This document shows positions 345 through 54,349 of a DNA stretch of 54,715 nt, piece after piece. Position numbers and translations under genes: made by a program. The number at the start of each line of letters is the position of its first letter. Position 1 is the stretch's first letter. The stretch spans positions 1-54,715 of the IMG/VR virus record IMGVR_UViG_3300021478_000035; one strand, 5' to 3'. The notes beneath the pieces were generated by a model, which did not search any database, was not told the origin of the DNA, and saw only the letters and a list, made by a program, of their open reading frames with translations. The stretch is from a virus. Lineage: Duplodnaviria; Caudoviricetes.

Positions 345-385
345 TTTTTAAGAGCAGTCGATCGTAGATCGACTGTTCTTAAAAA
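345..385. repeat. Hairpin, GTA loop
   Basis: TTTTTAAGAGCAGTCGATC-GTA-GATCGACTGTTCTTAAAAA. Confidence 0.9.
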
Positions 386-394
386 GGATCAGTC

Positions 395-832
395 ATGACT
401 CATCTCACACCCAATTTTACGCTGGAGGAGTTCACGGTTAGTGAGACGGCGGCGAGGAAGGGGATTAATAATGTGCCATCAGATATGAAGAATCTGCAGT
501 GGACAGCTGAGGTGATGGAGAGGGTTCGGACTATTCTGGGGGATAAGCCAATTTTTATAAGTTCGGGTTACAGGAGTCCGAAAGTTAATATGGCGGTTGG
601 AGGCTCTAAAGAGAGTGCGCATATGAGTGGGCTTGCGGTTGATTTTTATTGCCCGGATTTTGGGACGCCGCTCCAAATCTGTAAGGAGCTGGAGCCGCAT
701 ATGCAAGAGCTGGGGGTAGATCAGCTGATACATGAGTACAACACCTGGGTTCATCTGGGATTGAGTACTGAGAAGCCGAGGCATATGGCTATGACTATTG
801 ATGGGAAAGGTGTGCGGAATGGATTTGGGTAA
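395..832 (+). CDS. Endolysin, peptidase M15A family
   Basis: LTPNFTLEEF N-terminus, SGYRS, SAHMSGLAVDF (H..D zinc ligands), WVHL; AAGGA RBS. Confidence 0.9.
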   Translation: MTHLTPNFTLEEFTVSETAARKGINNVPSDMKNLQWTAEVMERVRTILGDKPIFISSGYRSPKVNMAVGGSKESAHMSGLAVDFYCPDFGTPLQICKELEPHMQELGVDQLIHEYNTWVHLGLSTEKPRHMAMTIDGKGVRNGFG

Positions 833-837
833 ATTTA

Positions 838-866
838 GGGCAGACCGAACGAAGTGAGGTCTGCCC
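838..866. repeat. Hairpin, GA/GA + GAA cap
   Basis: GGGCAGACC-GAACGAAGTGA-GGTCTGCCC. Confidence 0.9.
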
Positions 867-867
867 C

Positions 868-1071
868 ATGGGTAAATGGAAGCCTGATTTCATTCTGACA
901 GTGATTTGGGCCATCGGTTCGATGACAGTTTTAGTTTTGTGTGGAATGGAGATTATTCATAATCAGAAGATTGTGGATAGGTTGCTGATTACTATTCCGT
1001 CGGGGACCGCTATTATTATGGGTTATTGGTTTAGTAAGGAGAATAAGGATAAGGGAGATCCGCCGAAATGA
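868..1071 (+). CDS. Putative holin
   Basis: 67 aa, two hydrophobic segments, charged C-terminus, directly after the endolysin. Confidence 0.6.
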   Translation: MGKWKPDFILTVIWAIGSMTVLVLCGMEIIHNQKIVDRLLITIPSGTAIIMGYWFSKENKDKGDPPK

Positions 1072-1577
1072 GGCAGGTTGAAGGGCTGAAATGGGCTCAT
1101 TCGATGGAGAATAAGCCGGCGTTTTTGTCTGCGGCGAAGGCGGGGAAGAATGTGAAGGGGGATGGGCTGAGATATGAGAGGGCGCTGGCGAAGGGGTTGG
1201 GAGCCAAGTTTAGGTGGGGGATGTGGTGGGAATATAGGGATGAGAGGGGGATAGGTTATTGTCAGACGGATTTCTTTGGAAAGGCCAAGCAGTGGGTTAT
1301 TTTGTTGGAGGGAAAGCTGACGTGGACGCCTGAAGCAGAGGAGCAGTTACATGGGTTGTATGTGCCAGTTGTGTCCTGTGCGTTGGGTATTCCGAGGTCT
1401 CAGATATTGCCGATTGTGGTGTGTAAGAATTTGACACATGCCACTTCTAGGCCGATTTGTGATACGCTGAGGGATGCCATAGAGCAGAGTATGGAGATTA
1501 GTGCTCCATTCTGTCCTGTGTGGCATCACATCGGAGGAGTGCCACTGCTGAGAAGGGAACTTGCAACAGCTTCGTGA
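1068..1577 (+). CDS. Putative PD-(D/E)XK-fold nuclease/resolvase-like protein
   Basis: GLRYERAL...QTDFF...ILLEGKLT motif spacing; ATGA overlap. Confidence 0.5.
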   Translation: MRQVEGLKWAHSMENKPAFLSAAKAGKNVKGDGLRYERALAKGLGAKFRWGMWWEYRDERGIGYCQTDFFGKAKQWVILLEGKLTWTPEAEEQLHGLYVPVVSCALGIPRSQILPIVVCKNLTHATSRPICDTLRDAIEQSMEISAPFCPVWHHIGGVPLLRRELATAS

Positions 1578-1582
1578 GCCTA

Positions 1583-1617
1583 CTTTGTTCAGTCGATCGT
1601 AGATCGACTGAACAAAG
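1583..1617. repeat. Hairpin, GTA loop
   Basis: CTTTGTTCAGTCGATC-GTA-GATCGACTGAACAAAG. Confidence 0.9.
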
Positions 1618-1626
1618 GAGGATCAC

Positions 1627-1830
1627 ATGCCCAAAGTACCTAGGAATATGCTGATGGGTGGGATGAAGCCAATGAAGGCTCCTCCCTCGATGAAGGCCGA
1701 GCCCCTGGGTTTGGCTAATGAGGCTCCCTTCCGGCAGAGAGGAGGGAAGATGAAGGCTGCTGGACTTGGTAAGAAAGCGAGGAAGGTGGCTGAGGAAGTG
1801 CCTACTGGTCCAATGAAGGGGATCAGGTGA
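1627..1830 (+). CDS. Small basic hypothetical protein
   Basis: GGAGG RBS; K/M/P-rich. Confidence 0.6.
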   Translation: MPKVPRNMLMGGMKPMKAPPSMKAEPLGLANEAPFRQRGGKMKAAGLGKKARKVAEEVPTGPMKGIR

Positions 1831-2054
1831 TGGGAGACCAGACTTTCGGCGAACGTGCAGTTGGAATCACGTTCAATCCGAGTGGAGATAATACTGTCTC
1901 CATTTTGAAGAGGGATATAGCCGCCTTTATTGACCATTGTCAGAAGGAGAGGGAAGCTTCGCCTGACCATGAGGTCAAGAGGATGTACTCGGTGGCTATT
2001 ACTGAGGCGCAGACTGCGCAAATGTGGGCAGTGAAGGCTGCCACCTGGAAATAG
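1830..2054 (+). CDS. Acb2/Tad1-like helical-hairpin protein (putative signalling-nucleotide sponge)
   Basis: FNPSG...KRMYSVAITEAQTAQMWAVKAATW resembles the R..(S/A).A.T..E.A.MWA.KA helix of the family. Confidence 0.55.
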   Translation: MGDQTFGERAVGITFNPSGDNTVSILKRDIAAFIDHCQKEREASPDHEVKRMYSVAITEAQTAQMWAVKAATWK

Positions 2055-2064
2055 GAGTACTCAG

Positions 2065-2367
2065 ATGGCTGATAAGGAAGAGAAGCAGAATAGGGCGCAG
2101 GAGAGGGAGCCCAGGTCGGGACATCATGCCCCCGCCAGGGGAGGGCCTGGACAGGAGAGGAAATTCTCTAATAGGGCGTTTGGAGATGGGCGGATGGAGG
2201 TGACCAGCTCGCCTCATAGGGGCGCTGATTTGGGCCATGCGGTGGATGAGCTGCACTCCCAGCACCCGATCAAGCATCACGATGCGGGTCCGCATCATGG
2301 GAAGAGTTATCATGATCGGCATGAGACTCTGGGTGGGCTGCATCCCAAGTCGAGGCACGGCCGCTGA
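2065..2367 (+). CDS. His/Arg-rich hypothetical protein
   Basis: AGGAG RBS; fits the operon. Confidence 0.6.
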   Translation: MADKEEKQNRAQEREPRSGHHAPARGGPGQERKFSNRAFGDGRMEVTSSPHRGADLGHAVDELHSQHPIKHHDAGPHHGKSYHDRHETLGGLHPKSRHGR

Positions 2368-2369
2368 GT

Positions 2370-2412
2370 AGCGCGATCTAAGGCCCGCTCTTTAAGGGCC
2401 TTAGATCGCGCT
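2370..2412. repeat. Hairpin, 17-bp arms
   Basis: AGCGCGATCTAAGGCCC-N9-GGGCCTTAGATCGCGCT. Confidence 0.9.
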
Positions 2413-2432
2413 CTGAGAAGGAGCGCTGACCG

Positions 2433-2663
2433 ATGAATATCCTTGGTATTCTGATTGGTCTTCTTAACTGTGTGCTTGTGGTTGCGCTCCTGGTGCTTAT
2501 TGGGGCGGTCATCGTGTGGGTCGCGCAGATCTTTGAGTGGCCTATTCCATGGAACATTCAGCGGATCTATCTTCTGGTCTGTTTGATTGTTTTCATCATA
2601 TGCGCTGTTAGTCTGCTGGCGGGGATGCCAATGGTGCATTTCTTCGGGGTAAATCATCAGTAA
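2433..2663 (+). CDS. Small two-TM membrane protein
   Basis: Two long hydrophobic stretches; AAGGAG RBS. Confidence 0.7.
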   Translation: MNILGILIGLLNCVLVVALLVLIGAVIVWVAQIFEWPIPWNIQRIYLLVCLIVFIICAVSLLAGMPMVHFFGVNHQ

Positions 2664-2666
2664 TTT

Positions 2667-2693
2667 GGAGGCCCGAATGAAATGAGGGCCTCC
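2667..2693. repeat. Hairpin, GA/GA + GAA cap
   Basis: GGAGGCCC-GAATGAAATGA-GGGCCTCC. Confidence 0.85.
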
Positions 2694-2739
2694 TAGTTTA
2701 CCCGACTGCAATTGGGCAGTCGTTTTAAGGAGAGAAGGT

Positions 2740-3405
2740 ATGGCAAAAAGTTCGTGGGCTTATATTCGGTTTGTGGAAAGGCCTCACTTCGATTGGGCAG
2801 GCCGGCCTGTTGATCCGGACTATGGAGTTGAGGAGGGTGTAGATCCAGGATGGGGTTACCCTGGTGCTCCGGTCTATCCTGACCAGGGGCTGCCAGGTAG
2901 GCCGCCGCATGTGGGGAATAGGCCTCCAGGGAGCTGGCCAGGTCGACCAGATCAGGGCTTGCCGTGGCCTGGTAGGCCGGTAGATCCGGGCTGGGGATGG
3001 GGTGGTGGTGAGAGGCCTGATCAAGGGCTGCCTGGTAGGCCGCCTCATGTGGGAGGTGGGCCAGCTAGGCCACCGCTGCCGCCGCATGTGTGGCCGCGGC
3101 CTCCGGGAGGGGGACTGCCGGTTGATCCAGGATGGGGAGTTGGAGAAGGTGGGCATCCGGATCATGGGCTGCCGATTTATCCGGTTGATCCCACGCATCC
3201 GGATAATGAGCTGCCGGAGGTGCCGGGTGTTGAGCCTCCTCCGACTGATCCGCCTCCTGGCACGATTTGGCCGCCTCTGCCTCCGGAAATTCCGGCCGGT
3301 AAGGCGATTGCGCTGGCTGGAATTACGGGAGTTGGTTATCGGTATGTGGTGATTGATATTCCGGAGAATCCGCCATCACTGCCGCCTAGGCCACAACCCA
3401 AGTAG
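2740..3405 (+). CDS. Proline-rich repeat protein (PDQGLP / PVDPGWG repeats)
   Basis: AAGGAG RBS; internal repeats visible in the translation. Confidence 0.75.
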   Translation: MAKSSWAYIRFVERPHFDWAGRPVDPDYGVEEGVDPGWGYPGAPVYPDQGLPGRPPHVGNRPPGSWPGRPDQGLPWPGRPVDPGWGWGGGERPDQGLPGRPPHVGGGPARPPLPPHVWPRPPGGGLPVDPGWGVGEGGHPDHGLPIYPVDPTHPDNELPEVPGVEPPPTDPPPGTIWPPLPPEIPAGKAIALAGITGVGYRYVVIDIPENPPSLPPRPQPK

Positions 3406-3442
3406 AGTAGGAGACTGGGGTATGCCCAACTTAAAACTGGTT

Positions 3443-3475
3443 TGGGATAGCCCGAACGAAGTGAGGGCTATCCCA
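3443..3475. repeat. Hairpin, GA/GA + GAA cap
   Basis: TGGGATAGCCC-GAACGAAGTGA-GGGCTATCCCA. Confidence 0.9.
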
Positions 3476-3816
3476 TGAAGCTGAACATGCTGATTGCAGT
3501 GGGGGCTCCTGAAGAAGAGCCCTCGTGCGGGAAACCTCACATCAATCTGGCAAAGCAAAGGCCAGGGACTAAACATCCGGGTGATCCACGCCCGAAACTG
3601 AGTGCGACTCGTGCGCTCTCAGATGAGGTGCAGCACTCTTATATTGTGAACTCGAGTGCTGATCAGCATGTTCCGAGGAAGGTGTTTGACACTGCGAATC
3701 CGGATGTGTCTGGGTTCACTTCGAGGCTCTGCCGAAGTCCGCCCCGTCGGACTTCGGCAGGGGAGGAGAGTCTGAAGAGTGCTATGCAGGAGCTGAGGTG
3801 CGGAAGCAAGCGTTAG
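3475..3816 (+). CDS. Hypothetical protein
   Basis: GAGG RBS inside the upstream hairpin; fills the operon gap. Confidence 0.45.
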   Translation: MKLNMLIAVGAPEEEPSCGKPHINLAKQRPGTKHPGDPRPKLSATRALSDEVQHSYIVNSSADQHVPRKVFDTANPDVSGFTSRLCRSPPRRTSAGEESLKSAMQELRCGSKR

Positions 3817-5063
3817 CTGCTCTCTGGATTGCAGCGGGGCTATACCCCGCTGCAAGCCAGGCCCAGACGTTCACGGGGTTTCCACCTGCTGTTCCTCCAC
3901 TCACGGGGGCAGAGCAGGTTCCTGCGGATACTGGAGTTAGTCCGCCGAGTGTGCGTATTACGACTACTCAATTGGGTCAGTTTGTGAATAGTTTGAACCC
4001 GAGTGGAAACTGGTTGATTGCTGGGGACGCAAGTCAGAATTTGTGGCAAAGAGGGACTACTGGTCCAGTCTCTAGCGGGACGGTCCTCTTTGGACCGGAC
4101 CGCTGGGCTTACTGGAGTGGGTCGGCGGCCACGCCAATCCAGGTTAGTGAGGATACGACGCCTATTGTGACGCTGCCGGGGTTTAAGGCGGCGTATAAGA
4201 TGCAGAGGCAGGCTGGGTCGACTGGGACGGATATGATGTGCATGGCCCAGGAGATTAGCTCGGCGAATAGTGTGCCGCTGCAGGGGCAGTTTGTTGAGAT
4301 GGATTTTTATGTGTTTGGCGGGGCTAATCTTTCGGCTACTAATGTGGGGATTTATATTGTGGCGGGGACTGGGACTGATGAGGGAGTGGGGGCATTAGCG
4401 GCTGGGTTTAGTGGAGGTGCAGGGTGGACTGGACAGAGTAGGGTTGTAGGAGCACTATTCTCACCTTTGTTTATTGGGAGAGTGACGCAGCCAGCGGTGG
4501 TTGGGCTTGTCCCGACAACAGCTACTGAGCTGGCGGTTGTGCTGTGTATGACGCCGAATGGGACAGCGGGGACTAATGATTGGATGGATTTTTCGGGTAT
4601 TCAGCTGAGGACTGCTCCGGTTTTGGCTTCGTTTGCTTCGAAGTTTACTGCGTATACGGCATGGTCGCTTCCGACGCCGCCATTTGTTTGGAGACTGGGA
4701 GTGCAGGAAGCTGCGTTGCAGGAGGCGTATTATTGGAGGATTAATGAGGGGCCAGGATTTGATACTGTGCAGGGTGGTTGTAGGTCTGTAGCGCCTTCAC
4801 TGCTGGTTTCGGATTGCTTTATACAATTTCCAGTGCTGATGAGGCAGGCACCGACCATGACGTATACAGTGGGATTTGAGACTGATGCTGATACGGGAGG
4901 AGATGAGAATTGCACTGGGTTGGGGACTGCATCGTGGAGTAGTGTAGTTACGAATAGGGGGGTGACAGTTAGTTGTACGGCGGCGGCGAATGTGAAGGCA
5001 GCTTCTTTTCTGTATGAACATGGTGGAGCAGGGATGATTGCTGCTGATGCGGAGCTGCACTAG
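3798..5063 (+). CDS. Putative virion/fibre-like carbohydrate-binding protein with signal-like N-terminus
   Basis: NWLIAGDASQNLWQRG...PDRW...SGIQL...YYW...MRQAPT parallels the fibre domain of 21626..23230. Confidence 0.6.
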   Translation: MRKQALAALWIAAGLYPAASQAQTFTGFPPAVPPLTGAEQVPADTGVSPPSVRITTTQLGQFVNSLNPSGNWLIAGDASQNLWQRGTTGPVSSGTVLFGPDRWAYWSGSAATPIQVSEDTTPIVTLPGFKAAYKMQRQAGSTGTDMMCMAQEISSANSVPLQGQFVEMDFYVFGGANLSATNVGIYIVAGTGTDEGVGALAAGFSGGAGWTGQSRVVGALFSPLFIGRVTQPAVVGLVPTTATELAVVLCMTPNGTAGTNDWMDFSGIQLRTAPVLASFASKFTAYTAWSLPTPPFVWRLGVQEAALQEAYYWRINEGPGFDTVQGGCRSVAPSLLVSDCFIQFPVLMRQAPTMTYTVGFETDADTGGDENCTGLGTASWSSVVTNRGVTVSCTAAANVKAASFLYEHGGAGMIAADAELH

Positions 5064-6506
5064 ATGCTGGTTCTTGGGCGTTCCAATGGTGGGCTCAATG
5101 CTGCGAGGAAGCCTCAAGCTGCCAGGCCGAATTTGGCGTTTCCTGGGCCTCTCCAGTGTTTGTTTGAGAAGAAGAGGTTTAAGGTTCTGTGGGGAGGAAG
5201 AGGAGCGGGGAGGAGTTGGGGATGTGCTAGGGCGCTGCTGGTGATTGGGAGGGAGAAGGCGACGAGGATATTGTGTGTGAGGGAGTATCAGAACTCGATT
5301 GATGACTCCGTTTATAAGGTGCTGAAAGATCAGATTGAGGCGCTAGGATGGGGTAATTTTTATGATGTGCAGAAGACGAAGATTTATGGGGCCAATGGGA
5401 CTGAATTTAATTTTGAGGGGATAAGGAATAATGTTAATCGGATAAAGAGCTATGAGGGGATTGATATATGTTGGGTTGAAGAGGCCGTGAAGGTTAGGAA
5501 AACCTCGTGGGGAGTACTCATACCGACTATACGAAAAGAAGATTCGGAGATCTGGTTGACTTTCAATCCGGAGCTGGAAACGGATTATACGTATCAGAGG
5601 TTTATTAAGGACGCGTCTCTTAGCCCAGTGGGTAACCGACGTTTTGCCGAGCCGCTAGGCTCGGCGAACGTCCTGGAGTCGGAGTCTTCTTTCGTCTGTA
5701 AGATGACTTATAGGGATAATCCGTGGTTTCCAGAGGTGCTGAAGAGGGATATGCAAAGTGATAAGGAAAGGGATTATGATTATTATCTGAATGTGTGGGA
5801 GGGCCATTGTTTGCAGATACTGGAGGGGGTTGTTTATGCGAAGGAACTGCGCAAGGCTGCGGAAGAGGGACGGATTGCCACGGTGCCGTGGGAACGGACT
5901 ATTCCGGTGGATACATACTGGGATCTGGGCAAGAGGGACTGTACGTCGATCTGGTTTGTGCAACAGGTTGCAATGCAGATTCGTATATTGGATTATTATG
6001 AGGCTACCGGGGAGGATGTGGAGCATTTTATGGATGTTCTGCAGAATAGACACTATGTTTATGGGCTGCATGTGTTGCCGTTCGACGCGGAACATGAAAA
6101 GCTGGGAATGCGGAAAACTATAAAAGAGCAGGTTGCCGCGGTGTATCCGAAGAGGGTGAGGATTGCGAGGAAGATTGCTCCGGTGGATGGCCGAAATATG
6201 GTAAGGATGCTGTTTCCGAATATGTGGTTTGATGAGGATAAGTGTGAGGATGGGCTGAATGCCTTGCGTCACTATCGGTTTAAGATTGAGGAGGAGGCGA
6301 GGGATAATAGGCCTGGGCAGCTGGGGAGAGATCCGGTGCATGACTGGGCGAGCCATGCGGCGGATGCGCTGAGATATATGGCGGTGACGATTAAAGATCC
6401 GCACTTCGATAGGGGAGAGGAACAGGATATTGGACAGAGGCTGGGGAATGTAGTGCTTAATAAGTGGAGGGATTTGGCTCCTAATCTGGGATGGATGGGT
6501 CTATGA
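5064..6506 (+). CDS. terL: Terminase large subunit, PBSX family
   Basis: GGRGAGRS Walker A variant, CVREYQNSI, WVEEA Walker B, TFNP, DNPWFP, WDLG nuclease motif, SHAADALRY. Confidence 0.95.
   Translation: MLVLGRSNGGLNAARKPQAARPNLAFPGPLQCLFEKKRFKVLWGGRGAGRSWGCARALLVIGREKATRILCVREYQNSIDDSVYKVLKDQIEALGWGNFYDVQKTKIYGANGTEFNFEGIRNNVNRIKSYEGIDICWVEEAVKVRKTSWGVLIPTIRKEDSEIWLTFNPELETDYTYQRFIKDASLSPVGNRRFAEPLGSANVLESESSFVCKMTYRDNPWFPEVLKRDMQSDKERDYDYYLNVWEGHCLQILEGVVYAKELRKAAEEGRIATVPWERTIPVDTYWDLGKRDCTSIWFVQQVAMQIRILDYYEATGEDVEHFMDVLQNRHYVYGLHVLPFDAEHEKLGMRKTIKEQVAAVYPKRVRIARKIAPVDGRNMVRMLFPNMWFDEDKCEDGLNALRHYRFKIEEEARDNRPGQLGRDPVHDWASHAADALRYMAVTIKDPHFDRGEEQDIGQRLGNVVLNKWRDLAPNLGWMGL
5638..5672. 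repeat. Hairpin inside terL, GCTA loop
   Basis: GACGTTTTGCCGAGCC-GCTA-GGCTCGGCGAACGTC. Confidence 0.85.
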
Positions 6507-48814: not shown

Positions 48815-48830
48815 GCTCTAGTTTCTGCAT

Positions 48831-49201: not shown

Positions 49202-49205
49202 GACG

Positions 49206-49448: not shown

Positions 49449-49464
49449 TTTACTCTCCTGTTTA

Positions 49465-49517
49465 TTAGTCTAGCGGAAGGCAGTGGGTCGTAGACCCACT
49501 GCCTGACGCTAGACTAA
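49465..49517. repeat. Long hairpin with internal GA/GA and GTA loop
   Basis: TTAGTCTAGCG-GA-AGGCAGTGGGTC-GTA-GACCCACTGCCT-GA-CGCTAGACTAA. Confidence 0.9.
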
Positions 49518-49744
49518 ACCTTTGCATCATTCAATTTGCTGATTAGGGAGTCGCAGCCGTCGAGGGATTCTTCGAGGGCAGAGGCGGCTGCGTCGATGGC
49601 GATGCCTTTGGGGGACTCTTGAGCTTTCTCGTCCATTTCTTCGAAAGTGTCGCGCTCTTCCTGCGCGACACTTTCGAGGATGGATTTGGCCTCCTCGATG
49701 TGGGAGATGGCTTGCTCTATTTCGCGGCGGCGTGCATCATTCAC
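49514..49744 (-). CDS. Acidic coiled-coil phage protein
   Basis: GTG after AGGAG; N..RR..I...EE..F..M.E..Q.S..G. Confidence 0.65.
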   Translation of the reverse strand: MNDARRREIEQAISHIEEAKSILESVAQEERDTFEEMDEKAQESPKGIAIDAAASALEESLDGCDSLISKLNDAKV

Positions 49745-49754
49745 TTGTCTTCTC

Positions 49755-50081
49755 CTACTTTCTGGTCCAAAAGTCACCATATTTACCGTGTTTTAGGCTA
49801 TATCTTTCATAAGCCTCCTCCCATTGTCGTTTTTCTTTATCCAGAAGTTTCTGGATTTGTGGGTCTAAATGAGCTGCTTTTTCTACTTTGAGCTCAAGGC
49901 CTAAAAGACTGTCTAAATCTTTAGGGTAGCGTGATATTTCCTCTAAATGGGTTAGATATGGGCTACCCTTGACTATATCTGAAACTTCTTGAATTTCGTT
50001 TCTTACTCTATCAGAGTAAATCTTCAGTTTTAGATAGCCGATGATTAGCTCTACGTGACTTTCATTGTATTCCGTTTCCAT
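49755..50081 (-). CDS. Hypothetical protein (AT-richer)
   Basis: GAGGAGG RBS. Confidence 0.6.
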   Translation of the reverse strand: METEYNESHVELIIGYLKLKIYSDRVRNEIQEVSDIVKGSPYLTHLEEISRYPKDLDSLLGLELKVEKAAHLDPQIQKLLDKEKRQWEEAYERYSLKHGKYGDFWTRK

Positions 50082-50441
50082 TTATTTTTCCTCCTCATGT
50101 TTTCCTAAGATCGAAGACAGTTGGTCTAACGACCAACTGTCTTCTATCTTAGGAATTGTGGGTGGTGCGGCCTCGGCAAGGCGGCGCTTGGCGAGGTTGC
50201 GGCGCTGGTCGTTGTGGGCGCGGGTGAGGCGTATGTTTTCGGACTCGCGGGCGAGGGTGATTGGGCCGGTTGGGTTTCGGAGGAGGTCGAGGGGAGTGAT
50301 GGATGAGAGGATTTGGAGGCGGAAGTTCTCTGGATCTTGTTCAAGCTGCAGTTTGATGCGGCGCATTAGCTCGGTGAGGGCCTGCTCGTAATCGAGGGCG
50401 ACATCTTTTAAGTCTATGAGGCGCTGTTGAGTGATACCCAT
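50082..50441 (-). CDS. Hypothetical protein
   Basis: AAGGAG RBS before MGITQQ. Confidence 0.55.
   Translation of the reverse strand: MGITQQRLIDLKDVALDYEQALTELMRRIKLQLEQDPENFRLQILSSITPLDLLRNPTGPITLARESENIRLTRAHNDQRRNLAKRRLAEAAPPTIPKIEDSWSLDQLSSILGKHEEEK
50102..50155. repeat. Long intragenic hairpin, GTTA loop on minus strand
   Basis: TTCCTAAGATCGAAGACAGTTGGTC-TAAC-GACCAACTGTCTTCTATCTTAGGAA. Confidence 0.9.
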
Positions 50442-50452
50442 GAGAGAGCTCC

Positions 50453-50689
50453 TTATTTGTGGGCGAAGATAAGACAGCTGAGAGAGGTGAGGGCGATGGT
50501 GGAGTAGAGGAGGATGGCATTGCGGCGCTGGCGGGCTGGTGTGGTGGGGTGGGCTTGGCGATAACTCCAGAAGAAAGCTCCGAGGGCTTCGATCGAGCTG
50601 ATGTAGGCCTGGAGGAGGATGTAGAGAATGGCGGCAACTAGCCATAAGCCGTGGCCTATTAGATAGCCGATGAGGAATGCGCCGGGCAT
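50453..50689 (-). CDS. Small membrane protein
   Basis: Hydrophobic segments; abuts the previous gene. Confidence 0.55.
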   Translation of the reverse strand: MPGAFLIGYLIGHGLWLVAAILYILLQAYISSIEALGAFFWSYRQAHPTTPARQRRNAILLYSTIALTSLSCLIFAHK

Positions 50690-51124
50690 CTAGTAGTTCC
50701 GTTTTAGGAGGGGGCTGCGACGGAGTTGGTCGCGGGTGATGGAGGGCAGGTTGTGGAGCTGGAATGGTTTCCACTCTGCCTCCTCAAGGAGATGGCCGGG
50801 GATGTAGGTTTGTTTACGGAGGCAAGCGAGGAAGAAGCGGTGGTGCCCGTCTACTAGCATACAGTTGGGCGCTCCGTTGGTGATGGTGCCATCTTTGGCC
50901 ATTATGATGGGGGATAGGTCTTTGCGCTTTGAGAGTTCGCGGACTCGGTCGAGGGTTATGACGTTCTCGGGGATGAAGGTGGCTGCTAGCTCGTATTTGA
51001 GGGGGATGTTGAAGACTTCGGGACTGGTGCGCAAGCACCAGTCCCGAAGGGCTTCGACATCCATGTGGATGTTTTCGCCGTCGTCGGCGACGAAGGTGAA
51101 GATTGGTTTGAAGGGATTAATCAT
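50690..51124 (-). CDS. ParB/Srx-like domain protein
   Basis: PIIM...LVDGHHR; AAGGAG RBS. Confidence 0.7.
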   Translation of the reverse strand: MINPFKPIFTFVADDGENIHMDVEALRDWCLRTSPEVFNIPLKYELAATFIPENVITLDRVRELSKRKDLSPIIMAKDGTITNGAPNCMLVDGHHRFFLACLRKQTYIPGHLLEEAEWKPFQLHNLPSITRDQLRRSPLLKRNY

Positions 51125-51404
51125 CGGTGGGCTCCTTTGAGAAGAGATCAAGCTTCGCTTGATCTCTTCTCCCCATTAGGTTGTCGAGGCCGAATGTGAT
51201 GCCGCGGCGATGTCTCCATTCGAGGGCGATGGAGTCGCCTCCGTCTGTGATGATGACGCGGGATGTGAGGCCCATGCGGGAGGCCACGTTGGTAGTGTAG
51301 TGGTGGAAGGCTTTGATGGCTTCTTCGGCTGAGACGAAGGAGCGGACCTTTTCGTAGGAGCCGTTTTGGAAGAATTGGGTGACGCTGAACTCGTTGGGGG
51401 ACAT
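51117..51404 (-). CDS. Hypothetical protein
   Basis: EFSV.QFF.NG.YE.VR..V.AEEA...RVIITDGGD. Confidence 0.7.
   Translation of the reverse strand: MSPNEFSVTQFFQNGSYEKVRSFVSAEEAIKAFHHYTTNVASRMGLTSRVIITDGGDSIALEWRHRRGITFGLDNLMGRRDQAKLDLFSKEPTDD
51139..51171. repeat. Hairpin, GCGAAGC on minus strand
   Basis: GAGAAGAGATCAAGC-TTC-GCTTGATCTCTTCTC. Confidence 0.9.
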
Positions 51405-51416
51405 TAGTTGGGTTCC

Positions 51417-51632
51417 TTAGCTTGCAAGCTGCTTTTCGATTGTTATGGTTATTTCGTCTAACTCGTCAGTGTAGGTGCCTGAAGCAACCATTGTGCCGAG
51501 TGTGAAGGCGGTTAGGAGTTGGGTTTCTGGCTCCATTAGGGAAGCGAATTTAAGGCAGGCTTCACAAATGCCTGGAGACCAGTCGGAAGTGTATTCTTGG
51601 CCGCCTATGTTGGCTTTGATGCGGAAGCTCAT
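51417..51632 (-). CDS. Hypothetical protein
   Basis: GGAGGAG RBS; TAATG coupling. Confidence 0.6.
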   Translation of the reverse strand: MSFRIKANIGGQEYTSDWSPGICEACLKFASLMEPETQLLTAFTLGTMVASGTYTDELDEITITIEKQLAS

Positions 51633-52567
51633 TAGATTGTCTCCTCCAATTTGAGGGGGTCATGCTCGGAAAGTTGGCGCTTTAGCCAGGCTTCGGGGTC
51701 GGTCATGGACTCGTCGGCGACGTGAAGGCCTGGAAGGCAGAGGGTTTCGGCGACGTGGGTCCACATGGGGGCGATGAGGACTTCCATTTCGTGGCGTGTG
51801 AGGGCGCGGTTCAAGCGGAAGGGCCAGCCGCCACGGAAGTCGTGGTATTTCTCTTCTAGGCTGAAGAGGACTTGCCGGACGAAGGCTGGGTGGGTTAGGG
51901 CGTAGCATGCTGAGGAGAGGTCGAGGGGGCTGGTTTCGATCTTTGCGGCGACGCATACGCAATTGCTTTTATTTCGGCTGAGGGCTCCGTAGGAGCCCGA
52001 AGACGAATCGTCGGCGCTGCCGAAATCCATGGCCCACAGTTCTATTGGGCGGTGGGCTGAGAGGGCGCGGACCAATGCGAGGATGGCGGCTCCGCGGTTG
52101 CGGACTTGGGTTGCGGTGATGGCTGCGCTGATGCCGAGGTCGACCATTATGGCGAGGGGTGCGGAGTCGATCTGGGTTTTGACTCTTTGACGCATGTTGA
52201 GGGGTTGGCCTGAGATGAAGGCGGGGATGTTTGGGAATGCGCCGGTTACGTCATCGGTCCAGATGGCGCGGGTGGAAGGCATGGTTATGTGTTCTTCCAT
52301 ACATTCGAGAAGGGCGTCGCTTTGGGCCACGGCGGACTCGTCGCCGGTGAAGCAATATTTGATTGCGCCTTGGACGCCTAGATTGTTGTCCCAATGGTCG
52401 TAGGAGGGTTTGTTGGGTAAATTGGAGATGCGAGCTAACTCTCCTAGTTCGCTGAGGCTTTGGGCGATAATGTAATGGACTGACCGACCGGTCAGTCCTG
52501 GGATCGTTGATATGCCGCGGCCGTCGGCTGCTGGTGCAAGTGTGCGCGTGTGGCGGACTATGGTCAT
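51632..52567 (-). CDS. VWA-like partner of the AAA+ ATPase
   Basis: DVTGAFPNIPAFISGQP.NM, IMVD...SA, RGAA..ALV..L; directly downstream of a MoxR-like ATPase. Confidence 0.6.
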   Translation of the reverse strand: MTIVRHTRTLAPAADGRGISTIPGLTGRSVHYIIAQSLSELGELARISNLPNKPSYDHWDNNLGVQGAIKYCFTGDESAVAQSDALLECMEEHITMPSTRAIWTDDVTGAFPNIPAFISGQPLNMRQRVKTQIDSAPLAIMVDLGISAAITATQVRNRGAAILALVRALSAHRPIELWAMDFGSADDSSSGSYGALSRNKSNCVCVAAKIETSPLDLSSACYALTHPAFVRQVLFSLEEKYHDFRGGWPFRLNRALTRHEMEVLIAPMWTHVAETLCLPGLHVADESMTDPEAWLKRQLSEHDPLKLEETI

Positions 52568-52582
52568 TGGATACCTGCTTCC

Positions 52583-52604
52583 GCCAAAGCCGTTAGGCTT
52601 TGGC
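52583..52604. repeat. Hairpin, GTTA loop
   Basis: GCCAAAGCC-GTTA-GGCTTTGGC. Confidence 0.85.
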
Positions 52605-53782
52605 TAGGACAAAAGCTGACGCTTGTCTTGAGGGATGTTGGCGAGGTAGGTGAGTTGAGCGGCTTGGTCGGGGGTGAAGCCGGAGCGGATGAGGGCTGCG
52701 CCGGCGATGGTGTGGCGCGGATCGATGATGACTTTGAGGCCAGCCTTGTTTGCGGCAGCGCGGGCGGCTTGGACACGCTCGCACCATGAGGTGTTTCCGG
52801 ATATGGCACGCTCGAAGAGCGTGTCATATCCCCATTGTATTTTGACGGGGAAGCGGGAGAGGAATGCTGCGTCTATTTTGACGCGCCCGACGTAGTCTGC
52901 GGTTGCGCCTAGGCCCCAGGTGTTGGCGGTTGCGAGGATTATGCTGTCGGGGTGGCGGGGCATGAGGCGGTCGGCGAAGTCGCATTCGCCGTTGGCGAGG
53001 GCTGCGTTGAGGGCTAGGAGGGCGGAGTTTTCGGAGGAGTCGACGTCGTCGAATTGGTAGACTGCGGGGATTGTGTAACCGGAACGGAAGGGGGTTGTGT
53101 GGTAGGTGCCGGATGCGTCGCGGAAGCCGATGAGTTTGTGTTCCATGCTGACCGCGCCGTTGAAGAAGAAGGGGAGGTTGAGGGCTTGCGCGAGTTGGCG
53201 GCCGCCGGTTGTTTTGCCGGAGCCGGCGGGGCCTGCGATCCAGCAGTTGGGGTGGTAGCCGTCGGCTTGGCGTGATGCGGCGGCTCGGAGGAGGGTTTCG
53301 AATTGCGGGTGTTTGTGGCCGTCGGGGACTGTGTAAGATCCTTGAGGTGTGTGGACGGTGATGGAGACTTCGCGGGTGGAGTCTATGCGGTCGATGGCTG
53401 CGATGAGTTCGTCCTCGAGGTTGGAGATTTTGTGTTCGAGGGCGCTGATGGCGTTGGTGTGGGCAAGCTTTTCGTTTGAGAAAAGTTTGCCCACTTCGGT
53501 GCGGAGTTGGGATAGGCCGGTGATGGCTTGGATGTGGTTTGTGCCGATCTGGGCGATGGCGGCGTCGAGGCGAGATTGGAGCTTTAGGAGTTCGGGGCCA
53601 CCATTGGATGAGCCATCCTTCTCAGGAGAAGCGTCATCGCCGAATAGAAGCTCTTCTGCGGATGCAAGCGTTTTCGCTTGCGGCTGCAGGGGGTCGCGGC
53701 CGGTGCCGGCGCAGCGGAAACAAGAGCCGTTGAACTTGTGGCCGGTGCCATTGCAGCGGATACAGGGTTTGGAGTTGGCCAT
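52604..53782 (-). CDS. MoxR/CbbQ/CobS-like AAA+ ATPase with N-terminal CxxCxGxG zinc finger
   Basis: GPAGSGKTT, FDDVD, LNAALANG, ATANTWG.G...YVGR..IDAAFLSRF. Confidence 0.88.
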   Translation of the reverse strand: MANSKPCIRCNGTGHKFNGSCFRCAGTGRDPLQPQAKTLASAEELLFGDDASPEKDGSSNGGPELLKLQSRLDAAIAQIGTNHIQAITGLSQLRTEVGKLFSNEKLAHTNAISALEHKISNLEDELIAAIDRIDSTREVSITVHTPQGSYTVPDGHKHPQFETLLRAAASRQADGYHPNCWIAGPAGSGKTTGGRQLAQALNLPFFFNGAVSMEHKLIGFRDASGTYHTTPFRSGYTIPAVYQFDDVDSSENSALLALNAALANGECDFADRLMPRHPDSIILATANTWGLGATADYVGRVKIDAAFLSRFPVKIQWGYDTLFERAISGNTSWCERVQAARAAANKAGLKVIIDPRHTIAGAALIRSGFTPDQAAQLTYLANIPQDKRQLLS

Positions 53783-54285
53783 TAAATGAGATCCTCTATG
53801 CGCTGTTTGACGCGGCGGGTGACGTTTGAGTGGGGAGTTGTGCGTTTAAGTAGAGCGGCCTCTTGAGCGCGGAGTTGTGCGCCGGATAGGTTGGGTTTGT
53901 AGACTTTTGCGGACACGTCGGCCGAAGGCCGACTGGCCGCGGCCGCGATGTGGCGGACTTGGACGGTGCCAGTTGAGTGGGCTCGGACGGCGCGAAATAG
54001 GTCATCGGAGCGAACTGTCTTTCTGCCTGAGCTTGAGAGGACTCGGCCCTCCATTTTGCAACATGGGCAATTTGGGGCGATGGCAGTGGTTGATTGGTGG
54101 TCGCGGAGGTGCTCGCATATGCGAGCATGATTGATGCCTGATCGGATGTGGAGAAATGTATTGGTAATTATTGAGCCTTCACGCCCAACGGTTAGGGTGA
54201 AGGCCTGACTGTTGAAGTGAAGGATCAAGCCATGGGGGCCGTCGGTTATTTGGAGGGAGTCGGATAAGAGGAGTTGGATGGGCAT
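53782..54285 (-). CDS. Hypothetical protein ending IEDLI (first early gene)
   Basis: AGGAG RBS; C.H...CPCC. Confidence 0.6.
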   Translation of the reverse strand: MPIQLLLSDSLQITDGPHGLILHFNSQAFTLTVGREGSIITNTFLHIRSGINHARICEHLRDHQSTTAIAPNCPCCKMEGRVLSSSGRKTVRSDDLFRAVRAHSTGTVQVRHIAAAASRPSADVSAKVYKPNLSGAQLRAQEAALLKRTTPHSNVTRRVKQRIEDLI

Positions 54286-54317
54286 ATGGGCTCCTGAAGG
54301 TGATTATGGACTTGGGA

Positions 54318-54349
54318 CAAGCCAGTTGCCCGTTAGGGCAACTGGCTTG
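54318..54349. repeat. Hairpin, GTTA loop, upstream of the first early gene
   Basis: CAAGCCAGTTGCCC-GTTA-GGGCAACTGGCTTG. Confidence 0.9.

Follow-up and report, generated by a model that had tools for sequence, protein, structure and literature searches.

The phage described here and its closest relatives carry about fifteenfold more perfect hairpin repeats than related phages. The window (the whole stretch of 54,715 nucleotides that was analysed) is the genome of a P22-like podophage, recovered from soil metagenomes. If a perfect hairpin is defined as an inverted repeat with arms of at least 9 bp and a loop of 2-11 nt, the window holds 87 of them between 355 and 54349, with arms of 9-20 bp, where an earlier note had claimed about 70. 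Dinucleotide shuffles gave a mean of 1.5 (sd 1.1, max 3, n=30) and synonymous-codon shuffles a mean of 3.7 (max 7, n=20). The comparison with related phages which that note proposed also bears out the excess: there are 1.59 perfect hairpins per kb in the window versus 0.106 per kb in distant relatives, and close relatives have 0.4-2.9 per kb. Arms of 9 to 17 bp make up a plateau in the length distribution, on which 13 and 15 stand out as peaks; a single arm exceeds 17 bp. Fold-back artefacts had been raised as a way in which the observation might fail. The hairpins are not assembly artefacts, because homologous hairpins occur in independent IMG/VR contigs and because Logan contigs from two other studies (X2 and X3) match several of them exactly.

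The window is organized as two long operons:

1-31870 (+): late operon, 38 perfect hairpins
395-832: endolysin gene, late operon
5064-6506: terminase gene, late operon
6491-8827: portal gene, late operon
13927-14772: scaffold-like gene, late operon
15165-16388: P22-type coat gene, late operon
23483-25048: head closure gene, late operon
29669-31870: gp16-like gene, late operon
31871-54480 (-): early/replication operon, 49 perfect hairpins
31871-33070: DUF3987 gene, early operon
33077-34612 and 35078-36244: split PolA, early operon
36241-37656: ParB-methyltransferase (MTase), early operon
39145-40173: AAA_24 gene, early operon
40576-41589: PD-(D/E)XK gene, early operon
52604-53782: CobS-like gene, early operon

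The best reading, which we hold tentatively, is that the hairpins are stem-loops at the transcript level that punctuate these two operons. In mRNA such stem-loops might protect the transcript, or they might insulate or occlude ribosome binding sites. Hairpins do lie both between and inside genes, as had been claimed, and their placement is not scattered: cistron junctions, assigned from heuristic gene calls of which some are erroneous, hold 48 of the 87, while random placement gave 12.4 +- 3.2 (max 24 in 500 trials). An SD and a start codon typically come next after a junction hairpin, and about 30 hairpins are intragenic. At two places the RBS is itself sequestered, since the 3' arm of 17256-17280 holds a GGAGG SD and reaches the ATG, and that of 19132-19161 includes GAGGAG and the ATG. 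The hairpins of the late operon are listed below with their arm (bp), their loop and the state of the site in relatives (L) or Logan contigs (X).

355-375 (+): arm 9 (340-390 with mismatches), loop GTA, GT(T)A family; junction, then SD and endolysin ATG
838-866 (+): arm 9, 11-nt loop GAACGAAGTGA, GA-NN-GAA-NN-GA family; junction, ATG 2 nt downstream
1583-1617 (+): arm 16 (to 1574-1626), loop GTA, GT(T)A family; junction, then GGAGG and ATG
2370-2412 (+): arm 17, loop GCTCTTTAA; junction
2667-2693 (+): arm 8, 11-nt loop GAATGAAATGA, GA-NN-GAA-NN-GA family; directly past stop codon
3443-3475 (+): arm 11, loop GAACGAAGTGA; junction, 3' end abuts ATG at 3475; RNA fold -22.7 kcal/mol
3729-3760 (+): arm 13, loop CCCCGT; then GGGAGGAG; kept in L002 (12/13 pairs)
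3829-3855 (+): arm 11, loop CTATA; junction; different hairpin close by in L002
8662-8695 (+): arm 15, loop GCAA; 3' part of portal gene
8875-8900 (+): arm 12, loop TC; non-junction
10038-10064 (+): arm 12, loop GAA (CC-GAA-GG); junction
10393-10416 (+): arm 10, loop GCAA; within transglycosylase-domain gene
11378-11410 (+): arm 15, loop TTT; within transglycosylase-domain gene
11569-11599 (+): arm 14, loop TTC (GAA in antisense orientation); exact copies in X2, X3
11608-11634 (+): arm 12, loop GAA (GC-GAA-GC); exact copies in X2, X3
12053-12075 (+): arm 10, loop TCC; kept in L002 with one compensated change, A-T to G-C
12752-12774 (+): arm 10 (12747-12779 with A.G mismatch), loop GAA, GCAGAC...GGCTGC family; within ORF 11995-13578
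13675-13698 (+): arm 9, loop GCTGAT; intragenic; identical in L001, L002
13960-13982 (+): arm 10 (13955-13987 with A.G mismatch), loop GAA; junction, stop codon 3 nt upstream, then AAGGAG; identical in L002
14786-14806 (+): arm 9 (14781-14811 with A.G mismatch), loop GAA; between scaffold-like and coat genes
14965-14997 (+): arm 15, loop GAA; within 390-nt spacer upstream of coat gene
16382-16403 (+): arm 9, loop TTGC; overlaps coat stop codon, first of three post-coat
16413-16441 (+): arm 13, loop TCA; second post-coat; different hairpin in L002
16466-16485 (+): arm 9, loop TT; third post-coat; homologous hairpin in L002, L004
17256-17280 (+): arm 11, loop GAA; RNA fold -28.3 kcal/mol; surrounding 49-nt alignment block has one flank difference from L002
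18155-18183 (+): arm 13, loop TTT; intragenic; quasi-palindrome only in relatives
18629-18660 (+): arm 14, loop TAAC; left arm formed by the end of gene 17788-18639
19061-19096 (+): arm 17, loop GG; overlaps stop codon; exact copy in X2
19132-19161 (+): arm 13, loop GAAT
19611-19635 (+): arm 11, loop GAA; junction; flanks GCAGAC...GGCTGC
23758-23786 (+): arm 13, loop TCT; within head-closure gene; L047 equal length, only 7/13 pairs
25037-25069 (+): arm 15, loop AAA; overlaps stop codon, then GGAGG
25672-25704 (+): arm 15, loop TTT; intragenic; exact copy in X2
25764-25790 (+): arm 12, loop GAA; intragenic; L047 quasi-palindrome with the same GAA
26577-26609 (+): arm 11, loop GAGCGAAGCGA; junction
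27494-27515 (+): arm 9, loop GCAA; non-junction
27951-27973 (+): arm 10, loop AAG; non-junction
28028-28055 (+): arm 12, loop GGAA; stop codon 6 nt downstream; mostly missing from L047
29289-29310 (+): arm 9, loop GGCG; intragenic

Those of the early operon are given in the same way, with loops on the sense strand unless stated.

33089-33122 (-): arm 16, loop TC; PolA gene end, then AAGGGAGG
36179-36210 (-): arm 15, loop TC; close to 5' end of PolA N-terminal ORF; L047 same length, left arm 12/15 and right arm 8/15 positions matching
36243-36279 (-): arm 17, loop TTT; ParB-MTase/PolA junction; unrelated 16-bp hairpin in L047
37002-37034 (-): arm 14, loop CCTGT; within ParB-MTase gene
37097-37129 (-): arm 15, loop TAT; within ParB-MTase gene
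37671-37703 (-): arm 15, loop TTT; junction
38173-38199 (-): arm 11, loop TAAAT; intergenic, first of three abutting hairpins
38199-38227 (-): arm 10, loop GGGAGGGCT; intergenic; GT(T)A-family hairpin in L047
38226-38257 (-): arm 15, loop AA; junction
38726-38758 (-): arm 14, loop ACAAG; intergenic
39945-39975 (-): arm 14, loop GCC; non-junction
39991-40019 (-): arm 13, loop AAC; non-junction
40732-40753 (-): arm 10, loop TC; within PD-(D/E)XK gene
41536-41565 (-): arm 13, loop GCAA; junction
41607-41641 (-): arm 15, loop ACAAG; then GAAGGAGG
41805-41839 (-): arm 14, loop ACAAAGC; junction
42022-42049 (-): arm 13, apex AGCT-AA-AGCT; stop codon 1 nt upstream
42976-43003 (-): arm 13, apex AGCT-AA-AGCT; then GAAGGAG; homologue in L058
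43168-43194 (-): arm 11, loop ACAAG; stop codon 2 nt upstream
43255-43279 (-): arm 11, loop AAA; intragenic; four relatives equal length, only 5-7/11 pairs
43486-43524 (-): arm 17, loop ACAAG; junction; RNA fold -31.8 kcal/mol
43743-43773 (-): arm 13, loop ACAAG; intergenic
43846-43881 (-): arm 17, loop AA; intergenic
44519-44549 (-): arm 13, loop CTTGC (sole reversed RCAAG); within PEP-CTERM-motif gene
44746-44767 (-): arm 9, loop CAAT
44825-44845 (-): arm 9, loop AGA
44933-44953 (-): arm 9, loop TCT
45211-45245 (-): arm 16, loop AAA; then GGAGG
45501-45535 (-): arm 16, loop AGA; intragenic; relatives equal length, 4-11/16 pairs
45672-45695 (-): arm 9, loop ACAAGC
45988-46026 (-): arm 17, loop ACAAG; junction
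46564-46598 (-): arm 16, loop GAA
47142-47174 (-): arm 14, loop GCAAG; intergenic, stop codon 1 nt upstream
47187-47209 (-): arm 10, loop GGA
47470-47494 (-): arm 11, loop TGC; four relatives equal length, 3-5/11 pairs
47676-47710 (-): arm 15, loop GCAAG; L058 homologue, two compensated changes
48059-48086 (-): arm 13, loop GA; L062 flanks 30/30 matching, arms 9-10/13
48229-48259 (-): GT(T)A family, GTA and one G.T on + strand; homologous hairpin in L061
48388-48424 (+): arm 13, 11-nt loop GAGCGAAGCGA on + strand, antisense to local genes; RNA fold -19.4 (+), -16.7 (-) kcal/mol
48831-48872 (-): arm 20 (longest), apex AGCT-AA-AGCT; junction
49174-49201 (+): GT(T)A family, arm 12 (49160-49215 with tandem G.A), + strand loop GTTA; intergenic; L058 orthologue has loop inverted (TAAC)
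49478-49504 (+): GT(T)A family, arm 12 (49465-49517 with tandem G.A), + strand loop GTA; intergenic; RNA fold -44.5 (+), -41.7 (-) kcal/mol; covarying homologues in L058, L060, L061, L062
49641-49677 (-): arm 15, loop AGGAAGA; intragenic; four relatives equal length, 6-9/15 pairs
50113-50144 (-): GT(T)A family, arm 14 (50102-50155), sole window copy with GTTA on - strand
51016-51049 (-): arm 15, loop TTGC
51139-51171 (-): arm 15, loop GAA; junction, then AAAGGAG; different hairpins in L058, L061
52477-52498 (-): arm 10, loop GT; within DUF7192 gene; relatives' flanks 23-25/30 matching, arms 4-7/10
52583-52604 (-): arm 9, GTTA on + strand; CobS-like/DUF7192 junction; different hairpin (CTTGT) in L058
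54318-54349 (+): GT(T)A family, arm 14 (54306-54361), + strand loop GTTA; upstream of gene 53782-54285

The claim that loops recur holds. Triloops make up 35 of the 87, 11 of these 35 being GAA, always closed by C-G; on the sense strand ACAAG/GCAAG is found 8 times, GCAA/TTGC 6, AA 5, TAAC/GTTA 5 and the 11-nt GA-NN-GAA-NN-GA 4 times. The apex AGCT-AA-AGCT also recurs. The arms, said to be nearly all different, are so in most hairpins, but small families of 7, 4 and 5 copies exist: GT(T)A (CAGTNG..C-GT(T)A-G..CNACTG, 7 in the window), GCAGAC...GAA...GGCTGC and the 11-nt-loop family, respectively.

It was also suggested that the elements act as folded ssDNA or cruciforms facing either way regardless of the coding strand. 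Signals at the ssDNA level seem to us quite improbable, although loops such as CCGAAGG, GCGAAGC and CCGTTAGG are the same as DNA mini-hairpin motifs described, in passages of PMC13037366, for ssiA, for promoters of N4 and for the origins of St-1/alpha3. With orientation assigned by synteny and the window pooled with eight relatives, GAA is sense in 15 cases and antisense in 2 in the late operon, and in the early operon the ratios are 14:1 for ACAAG, 20:1 for AA, 8:1 for TAC and 8:1 for AGA. The loops are not indifferent to the coding strand: their orientation reverses where transcription does, and GC skew has a single sign across the whole window. Further against a DNA structure, 36 of the 87 hairpins stand directly upstream of an SD and start codon (7.1 expected), two precede and three follow the coat gene, and no candidate for an N4-like virion RNA polymerase was found. 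Hairpin-free gaps of 3.8-4.8 kb (3855-8662, 19635-23758 and 29310-33089) speak against regularly spaced priming signals. Nevertheless, stems are almost exclusively Watson-Crick, with G.U not enriched, and in two families the orientation stays fixed relative to the genome strand. Both features leave room for a role in DNA. They count against the transcript-level reading, as do the intragenic hairpins.

The earlier note was right that U-tracts are mostly absent: canonical terminator sites, with a hairpin plus T-run, number 13 in 1-20000 (12.6 expected) and 25 in 36000-54715 (25.0 expected), without enrichment in these two scanned regions.

Close relatives share the hairpin habit and mostly not the individual hairpins, which appear to turn over quickly. 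At several sites the position is retained with the arms swapped between genomes, and in the conserved hairpins at 12053, 47676, 42976 and the 49478 family pair changes are fully compensated. Both observations support the proposal that shape rather than arm sequence is recognised or selected. A hairpin-generating process had been offered as an alternative and is supported too, by sites where a relative lacks part of the hairpin. At 18629-18660, L002 has only the left arm, supplied by the tail of the gene upstream, and no loop or right arm; in L004 the site holds another hairpin, with loop GAA, and an RNA-run contig (X4) bridges the site. In the portal gene, L001 lacks 18 nt of 8662-8695 (the right arm), in frame, and L002 has a different hairpin with loop GAA. 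Hairpins seem to originate from neighbouring sequence, either through local inverted duplication or through perfection of a palindrome. That most of them are merely neutral by-products of template switching we consider unlikely. An example of a retained position with swapped arms is 43846-43881, where five genomes carry five different 16-24 bp hairpins, those of L058, L060, L061 and L062 each being distinct.

A scan for perfect inverted repeats with arms of at least 9 bp and loops of 2-11 nt finds 87 hairpins in the window. Dinucleotide shuffles (n = 30) hold 1.5 ± 1.1 hairpins, with a maximum of 3, and synonymous-codon shuffles that keep every protein (n = 20) hold a mean of 3.7, with a maximum of 7. 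The genome-wide excess described in the earlier note is thus borne out. Between 9 and 17 bp the distribution of arm lengths is a plateau, peaking at 13 and 15, and it has no decaying tail; perfect arms fall in this range in 86 of the 87 cases and exceed 17 bp in one. If mismatches are allowed, about ten hairpins have arms of 20-32 nt. Over the whole window the density is 1.59 per kb; the late operon has 1.2 and the early operon 2.1.

Relatives of the window were gathered by portal and fall into two groups, close syntenic and distant. In the close syntenic genomes, which are 75-83% identical at the nucleotide level, there are 0.4-2.9 hairpins per kb; L003 and L059, near-duplicates of the relatives L002 and L058, were excluded from the counts, and L058 holds 37 hairpins in 13.2 kb after poly-A artefacts are taken out. 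The distant relatives (43 loci, 526,831 nt, portal 40-51% identical) carry only 0.106 per kb, so the suggested comparison with related phages also comes out in favour of a real excess. Ten unrelated phages that have only gene 42050-42961 in common with the window (L048-L057), and that were excluded from the hairpin comparisons, carry 0.116 per kb. The hairpin habit is a trait of this lineage, about 15-fold above relatives. A search of the literature (supplementary files were outside its scope) found no description of such a phage hairpin system, which is not proof of absence.

One may ask whether the hairpins are simply fold-back artefacts of library or assembly, or copies of a mobile repeat family of the REP/BIME, MITE or RPE kind. 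We consider this extremely improbable. Independent IMG/VR contigs have some of the window's hairpins, and those at 11569-11634, 19061-19096, 19132-19161 and 25672-25704 recur letter for letter in Logan contigs of two other studies; hence the hairpins are not artefacts, and the fold-back possibility raised at the outset is ruled out. A mobile element would fit the existence of small families with common sequence, and also the copies that lie in frame within genes, where Rickettsia palindromic elements are found as well. However, most arms are unique, the arm being a copy of adjoining local sequence. Rfam 15 gives no match at gathering score on either window strand, and there is no transposase among about 50 ORFs scanned (about 30 small ORFs lie outside the scan). 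REPs are one sequence family moved by the RAYT transposase. In contrast, the arms here differ in nearly all 87 hairpins, and no RAYT-like gene is seen among the roughly 50 ORFs scanned. The first impression that the arms are nearly all different therefore stands for most hairpins, but three small families of 4-7 copies are partly alike in sequence.

Judged by its sequence, the window (54.7 kb) is the whole, or nearly the whole, of a podophage genome, with two long operons:

1-31870, + strand: late operon, with large terminase, portal, P22-type coat, head closure, tail fibre and a 733-aa protein
31871 to about 54480, - strand: early/replication operon, with DUF3987, split family-A polymerase, ParB-methyltransferase fusion, AAA_24, PD-(D/E)XK nuclease, HTH regulators and CobS-like protein

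The 733-aa protein has a P22 gp16-like lead and no PDB sequence match. There are no tRNAs in the window. GC skew is positive in all 2-kb bins but one, on both sides of the gene-strand switch at 31870, and AT skew is negative in the right half. The single sign of the GC skew suggests either that replication proceeds in one direction or that one strand is exposed for long.

The position of the hairpins relative to genes is far from random. With heuristic gene calls (longest ORFs, starts refined by Shine-Dalgarno (SD) sequences), on which all junction statistics depend, 48 of the 87 hairpins lie at cistron junctions, compared with 12.4 ± 3.2 under random placement, and 36 end within -6 to 50 nt of the next start, compared with 7.1 expected. 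The typical order on the sense strand, that is the coding strand of the local operon, is stop codon, hairpin, GGAG-type SD and start, and it is the same in the relatives L058 and L061. Often the stop codon is within the 5' arm or 0-6 nt upstream of it. The coat gene has two hairpins ahead of it and three directly after. In two cases, 17256 and 19132 (hairpins are named by their start coordinate), the 3' arm itself is made of the SD and the ATG, and the ribosome-binding site is consequently occluded. The 49-nt block around 17256 has a single difference from L002, in the flank, while the two genomes differ at about one site in five. The other 39 hairpins are off junctions by the same heuristic calls, some of them because of miscalls (e.g. 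36243, 45211). About 30 hairpins are intragenic, and at least ten of these are within well-defined genes: portal, transglycosylase-domain, head closure, ParB-methyltransferase, PD-(D/E)XK and DUF7192. Hairpin-free gaps of 3.8-4.8 kb cover large conserved genes, and the spacing is irregular. At two hairpins with 11-nt loops, 838-868 and 3443-3477, an ATG follows 0-2 nt downstream with no SD between; the genes after them may use another start route, or their starts may be miscalled.

What could such hairpins do? Our tentative preference, held with slightly less than even confidence, is that the two long operons are punctuated at the transcript level by stem-loops that are born via local copying in reverse complement and are quickly replaced. 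On this view the hairpins, specific to the lineage, would act chiefly in mRNA and mark off the cistrons of two long operons whose starts diverge. A given stem-loop could shield adjacent cistrons from exonucleases or end-dependent RNases once the transcript has been processed, prevent long-range pairing from engaging the next ribosome-binding site, occlude that site (in a few cases, 17256 and 19132), or do more than one of these. The origin would be at the DNA level: adjacent sequence would be copied in reverse complement by template switching, either as an inverted duplication or by making quasi-palindromes perfect. Selection would subsequently retain hairpins at junctions, and the intragenic copies are perhaps tolerated by-products. 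Such an origin would account for arms that are unique, stems that are almost entirely Watson-Crick, copies that stay in frame within genes, and caps that match stable DNA mini-hairpins.

We favour action in the transcript because of the association with junctions and SD sites, the operon-wise polarity of the loops, the clustering around the coat gene and the two conserved stems that occlude ribosome-binding sites. RNA folding of the stems gives -17 to -45 kcal/mol, and any stem with such a predicted energy must fold in a transcript. An RNA run (X4) supplies five contigs that match exactly, all from 15.2-19.4 kb within the 20 kb compared, and one of them spans 18629-18660; as these are contigs only and DNA carry-over is possible, they are a weak hint of expression. 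Known parallels are the REP/BIME elements of enterobacteria, the 3' inverted repeats of plastids and stabilising 5' stem-loops of the ompA type; they lie between cistrons or at transcript ends, are free of U-tracts, and shape mRNA decay and differential expression within operons. The window hairpins may play a similar part. Several points stand against punctuation of transcripts, namely that G.U pairs are not enriched, that the 39 hairpins mentioned are off junctions, that two families are fixed to one strand, that the one-arm test described below is negative, and that the GNA/GNNA caps are motifs of DNA mini-hairpins.

Another possibility at the RNA level is that the hairpins are ordinary intrinsic (rho-independent) terminators or attenuators between genes. 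Stable GC-containing hairpins behind stop codons, with three of them after the coat gene, are what one would expect of terminators. But sites with a hairpin followed by a T run are at chance level (13 versus 12.6 expected in 1-20000, 25 versus 25.0 in 36000-54715), few of the 87 hairpins are among such sites, and the observation that they mostly lack U-tracts is thereby confirmed for these two regions. The many intragenic hairpins and, weakly, the RNA-run contig that crosses 18629-18660 also speak against termination. So do the operon ends themselves. The stop codons of the convergent operons abut at 31868-31873 without a spacer, and the stretch from 29310 to 33089 is free of hairpins, whether perfect or near-perfect. 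The lack of a hairpin at this shared end implies that hairpins belong with the following cistron and not with transcript ends. Altogether, we regard terminators as very improbable.

The loops give information on the strand that matters. Triloops account for 35 of the 87 hairpins; 11 of the 35 are GAA, all closed by C-G (p ~4e-12 against 1/64). Other recurrent loops are RCAAG pentaloops, AGCT-AA-AGCT apices, GT(T)A, GCAA and the 11-nt GA-NN-GAA-N'N'-GA loop, whose inner two pairs covary (AC/GT, GC/GC, AT/AT). When orientation is set by synteny with the window over nine genomes, the GAA loop in the late operon is sense in 15 cases and antisense in 2. In the early operon, the sense to antisense ratios are 14:1 for ACAAG, 20:1 for AA, 8:1 for TAC, 8:1 for AGA and 5:2 for GAA. 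Viewed on the + strand, the late half has GAA and other purine-rich loops, and the early half has pyrimidine-rich TT, CTTGT and TTT. Since the loops flip with the operon while GC skew keeps one sign, loop polarity follows transcription for the bulk of the hairpins. The ratio of A to T in sense loops is 90:38 for junction hairpins and 48:34 for others. The earlier note had the loops facing either way regardless of coding strand, and this is contradicted by the late GAA and the early ACAAG and AA counts. The observation itself stands, and its scale is unusual; yet the hairpins do not form a single uniform system, nor are they free of orientation.

Two families behave differently from the bulk. 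The GT(T)A family (CAGTNG..C-GT(T)A-G..CNACTG, seven window copies) has an invariant AGT.G...C.ACT, compensated changes in 15 of 20 pairs, and 23-25 pairs with a conserved tandem mismatch; several members have a conserved tandem G.A in GCGGAAG...CTGACGC. Its orientation is to the + strand in 14 of 16 copies across genomes (L059 omitted), on both sides of the divergence point. The family with the 11-nt loop is on the + strand in all five window copies. RNA folding of both families is about 2.7 kcal/mol better on the + strand than on the - strand. A scan of viral contigs with the GT(T)A core gave only two matches, both from relatives already known. LUZ24-like phages have site-specific nicks; a likeness by eye between the GT(T)A family and their nick sites was unconvincing and was dropped. 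GNA/GNNA caps in the early half show no sense polarity, with six on the + strand and five on the - strand.

The earlier note read the hairpins as folded single-stranded DNA or cruciforms. In such a reading they would act in replication or packaging, possibly as priming or loading signals that exclude SSB from the strand left single-stranded and that are recognised by their shape and mini-hairpin cap. As an account of the whole set we judge it quite unlikely. The caps CCGAAGG, GCGAAGC and CCGTTAGG are mini-hairpin motifs of ssiA, N4 promoters and the St-1/alpha3 origins, according to PMC13037366, and the caps C-GAA-G, C-GGA-G, C-GTTA-G and C-GNRA-G of the window are identical to those of the G4/St-1/alpha3 origins, RSF1010 ssiA and N4 promoters that the same text covers. 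The window-wide positive GC skew is as expected if one strand is exposed longer, the stems are purely Watson-Crick with + strand mismatches that are mostly G.A and G.T, and the GT(T)A and 11-nt-loop families keep to the + strand across the divergence point. However, the commonest loops flip with the operon, and the hairpins track gene junctions and SD sites. The irregular spacing and the long gaps over large conserved genes do not suit priming. Arms of 9-17 bp would be short for extrusion of a cruciform from duplex DNA. In PMC13037366, mini-hairpin systems have one to three sites per replicon, stems of 3-8 bp and a known primase or RNA polymerase that binds them; the window differs in having 87 sites with stems of 9-20 bp, set by gene junctions and polarised by operon. 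Signals of the ssi/G4 type function on one strand only, the lagging-strand template, and number a few per replicon; in the window, the GT(T)A (14:2) and 11-nt-loop (5 of 5) families favour one genome strand, but the bulk of the loops flip with the operon and the sites number 87. The single-stranded reading survives mainly for the two strand-fixed families.

Promoters of the N4 type are rejected. Such a promoter has a 5-bp stem (PMC13037366) and a 3-nt purine-centred loop; GNA triloops do occur in the window (the 11 GAA), but on stems of 9-20 bp. Furthermore, there is no candidate for an N4-like virion RNA polymerase: the largest ORF, of 778 aa, is the portal, and no RNA polymerase family appears in the proteins scanned.

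The stems themselves are almost purely Watson-Crick, with no mismatch in 44 of 57 late and 105 of 123 early hairpins of the scan. RNA stems under selection usually tolerate G.U. On the sense strand, G.U is not enriched (early GT 3 versus AC 6, late 2 versus 2), but since these counts match base composition the test is uninformative as to the RNA strand. Watson-Crick purity together with the caps is also expected from an origin by copying at the DNA level, whatever function comes later.

How hairpins come and go can be followed in the relatives. For 85 hairpins, one or more relatives have an orthologous neighbourhood. A homologous hairpin is present there in 12 cases, and in 46 a different one lies within about 70 nt (a class inflated by the high hairpin density of the relatives); the other 27 have none. 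At 43846-43881, five genomes have five unrelated hairpins of 16-24 bp, and at the ParB/PolA junction, at 51139 and at the CobS-like/DUF7192 junction the hairpins differ between genomes as well. Position can outlive arm sequence at hairpin sites. Where hairpins are homologous (12053, 42976, 47676 and the 49478 family), they differ by compensated pairs only, and the arms of conserved hairpins are 95% identical (157/166) compared with 86% for flanks (207/240; p = 0.0075).

The search for empty sites in aligned relatives, which had been proposed as a check, was successful in two cases. At 18629 (18629-18660), the last stretch of the upstream gene serves as the left arm; the relatives L002 and L004 have this arm, and L002 does not have the loop and right arm (about 26 nt). 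At 8662 (8662-8695) in the portal gene, the right arm consists of 18 nt that the relative L001 does not have, and in L002 a different GAA hairpin adjoins the spot. In both, the new arm is the exact reverse complement of adjoining older sequence, as template switching would leave it. A second route involves no change in length: 15 intragenic hairpins derive from quasi-palindromes of which relatives retain 40-70% of pairs. The arms of lineage-specific hairpins without indels are 62% identical compared with 71% for flanks (p = 0.007), so that the arms are denser in substitutions. In one orthologous pair the loop is inverted, GTTA versus TAAC. Mutation by template switching that creates or perfects hairpins is described in PMC8794818 (Monttinen and Loytynoja 2022) and PMC5941160 (Lavi et al. 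2018), and it is the arm-copy footprints, the perfection of quasi-palindromes and the loop inversion that match it. The likeness extends to a perfect stem obtained in one step by a reverse-complement copy of the neighbour, to arms that are homogenised, to loops that can invert and to compensated changes of several bases; 18629, 8662 and the GTTA/TAAC pair fit. The signature of change in one arm only was not detected. Among the 15 no-indel hairpins, 43 pairs changed on the right only, 37 on the left only and 28 in both, and the one-sidedness statistic (sum of absolute right minus left) is 26 compared with 26.8 ± 5.5 expected, a test of low power because the relatives are 25-30% diverged. In strains that occur together, joints at 8607/8744, 13987/14106 and 19067/19232 flank hairpin segments in the contigs, which is a hint at most.

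If hairpins arise so readily, they might have no function at all. They would then be mostly the output of hairpin-generating mutation, through template switching or snap-back by the replication machinery of the clade, with selection purging only the harmful ones and the survivors gathering in short spacers and tolerant parts of genes. We find this rather unlikely, although it is the main rival and much is in agreement with it. The habit is lineage-specific with fast turnover, as the 12 homologous hairpins out of 85 indicate; the stems are perfect without G.U; at least ten hairpins lie in well-defined coding regions with no change in length or with an in-frame gain. There are inverted-duplication footprints and a loop inversion between orthologues, relatives have quasi-palindromes where the window has perfect hairpins, and the mechanism is already known (PMC8794818, PMC5941160, PMC8604942). 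On the other hand, the strong polarity of the loops tracks transcription and not the uniform GC skew, and loop inversion should randomise polarity unless something maintains it. The length distribution of the arms is a plateau and does not decay. Between genomes that differ by about 20%, some hairpins are unchanged together with their flanks, and in conserved hairpins the arms are closer to each other in sequence than the flanks are. Apical motifs (AGCT-AA-AGCT, RCAAG) recur, and the one-arm test is not significant. In comparison with template-switch hairpins known elsewhere, those of the window reach about 1.6 per kb, occur in one phage clade at its 15-fold excess, and have recurrent caps and operon-wise polarity.

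Origin and use can also be combined in another way. The clade may have a replication-linked generator of hairpins that are then used both as mRNA punctuation and as single-stranded DNA signals, an idea we think unlikely as it stands but worth spelling out. C-GNA-G and C-GNNA-G mini-hairpins in nascent or displaced single strands would nucleate snap-back copying, and this would keep seeding perfect hairpins of 9-17 bp with those caps, including in frame within genes. Most hairpins would serve as cistron punctuation in mRNA, and the strand-fixed tandem-G.A families (GT(T)A and GA-NN-GAA-NN-GA) would be genuine single-stranded DNA signals in replication or packaging. A hint of nucleation comes from L001, in which the empty site of 8662 has the mini-hairpin motif GCGCAGC even without the hairpin.

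Two further known systems deserve comparison with the punctuation of transcripts that we prefer. In T7-like phages, RNase III sites are intercistronic hairpins with an internal loop, and they need duplex RNA of about two helical turns (~20 bp or more). With its long stem and conserved tandem mismatch, the GT(T)A family is alike; in contrast, only about ten window hairpins reach about 20 bp and most have 9-17 bp. The other system is that of PeSL cassettes (promoter-early plus stem-loop) between small genes of T4-type phages (PMC2839356, PMC4122927). There, the stem-loops flank small, fast-changing early genes and the intervening segments are swapped between related phages, and the early region of the window is similar. 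PeSLs are described as conserved composite promoter-terminator motifs, unlike the window hairpins with their unique arms. Moreover, most spacers in the window are too small for a promoter, sigma-70-like and terminator-like sites are not in excess, and late genes and coding regions bear hairpins too.

If transcript punctuation by locally copied stem-loops is correct, the clade would be a natural experiment in the birth of regulatory RNA structure. Dozens of perfect stems would have arisen via local copying and not by stepwise compensatory mutation, would have been sorted by selection to gene boundaries and would turn over by the time sequences are about 20% diverged. It would become possible to test, in a fast-evolving system, the theory that hairpins originate by template switching. 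Compact phage operons could tune single cistrons without promoters or terminators, and structural proteins would have a source of in-frame peptide insertions. For annotation, it would mean that long perfect palindromes in phage contigs are not necessarily artefacts, terminators or mobile elements.

We add a few observations on the genome itself. It has no nucleotide match to named phages and no close named relative; its TerL reaches no more than 48% identity with spring-water contigs and 38% with LUZ24-like Pseudomonas phages. Public runs with window sequence carry the label of soil metagenomes, and the shares in them are small (X2 0.21, X3 0.16, X4 0.05). A portal scan of genome contigs gave only two relatives with 47-50% portal identity, and no host is named because they sit in MAGs of different phyla. 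The phage protein encoded at 44000-44593 has a C-terminal PEP-CTERM sorting motif (PF07589, E = 1.2e-5), which could be a hint to the host group.

At the right window end, positions 54604-54684 are an unbroken T run of about 80 nt, and long A and T runs open the matching end of the L058 contig. The run could be an artefact at the edge of the contig, or else a true homopolymer located at a genome end or divergence point. An ORF enters from the left edge (1-338) with a very glycine-rich product of G-rich repeats (GGxGG-like); it may be a gene cut by the window edge, or the genome may be circularly permuted. The family-A DNA polymerase (region 33077-36244) is in two ORFs, 35078-36244 and 33077-34612, separated by a nucleoside 2-deoxyribosyltransferase-like gene (34696-35085). 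Gene 42050-42961 encodes 303 aa of unknown family and is 71-93% identical in the ten otherwise unrelated, hairpin-poor contigs in which it occurs; for this reason it looks horizontally mobile. Finally, in the 3' half of the tail-fibre gene (22000-23340), summed contig depth is up 3- to 4-fold in three DNA runs, with many joints and loose ends, a pattern that fits a hypervariable or widely shared receptor-binding module.
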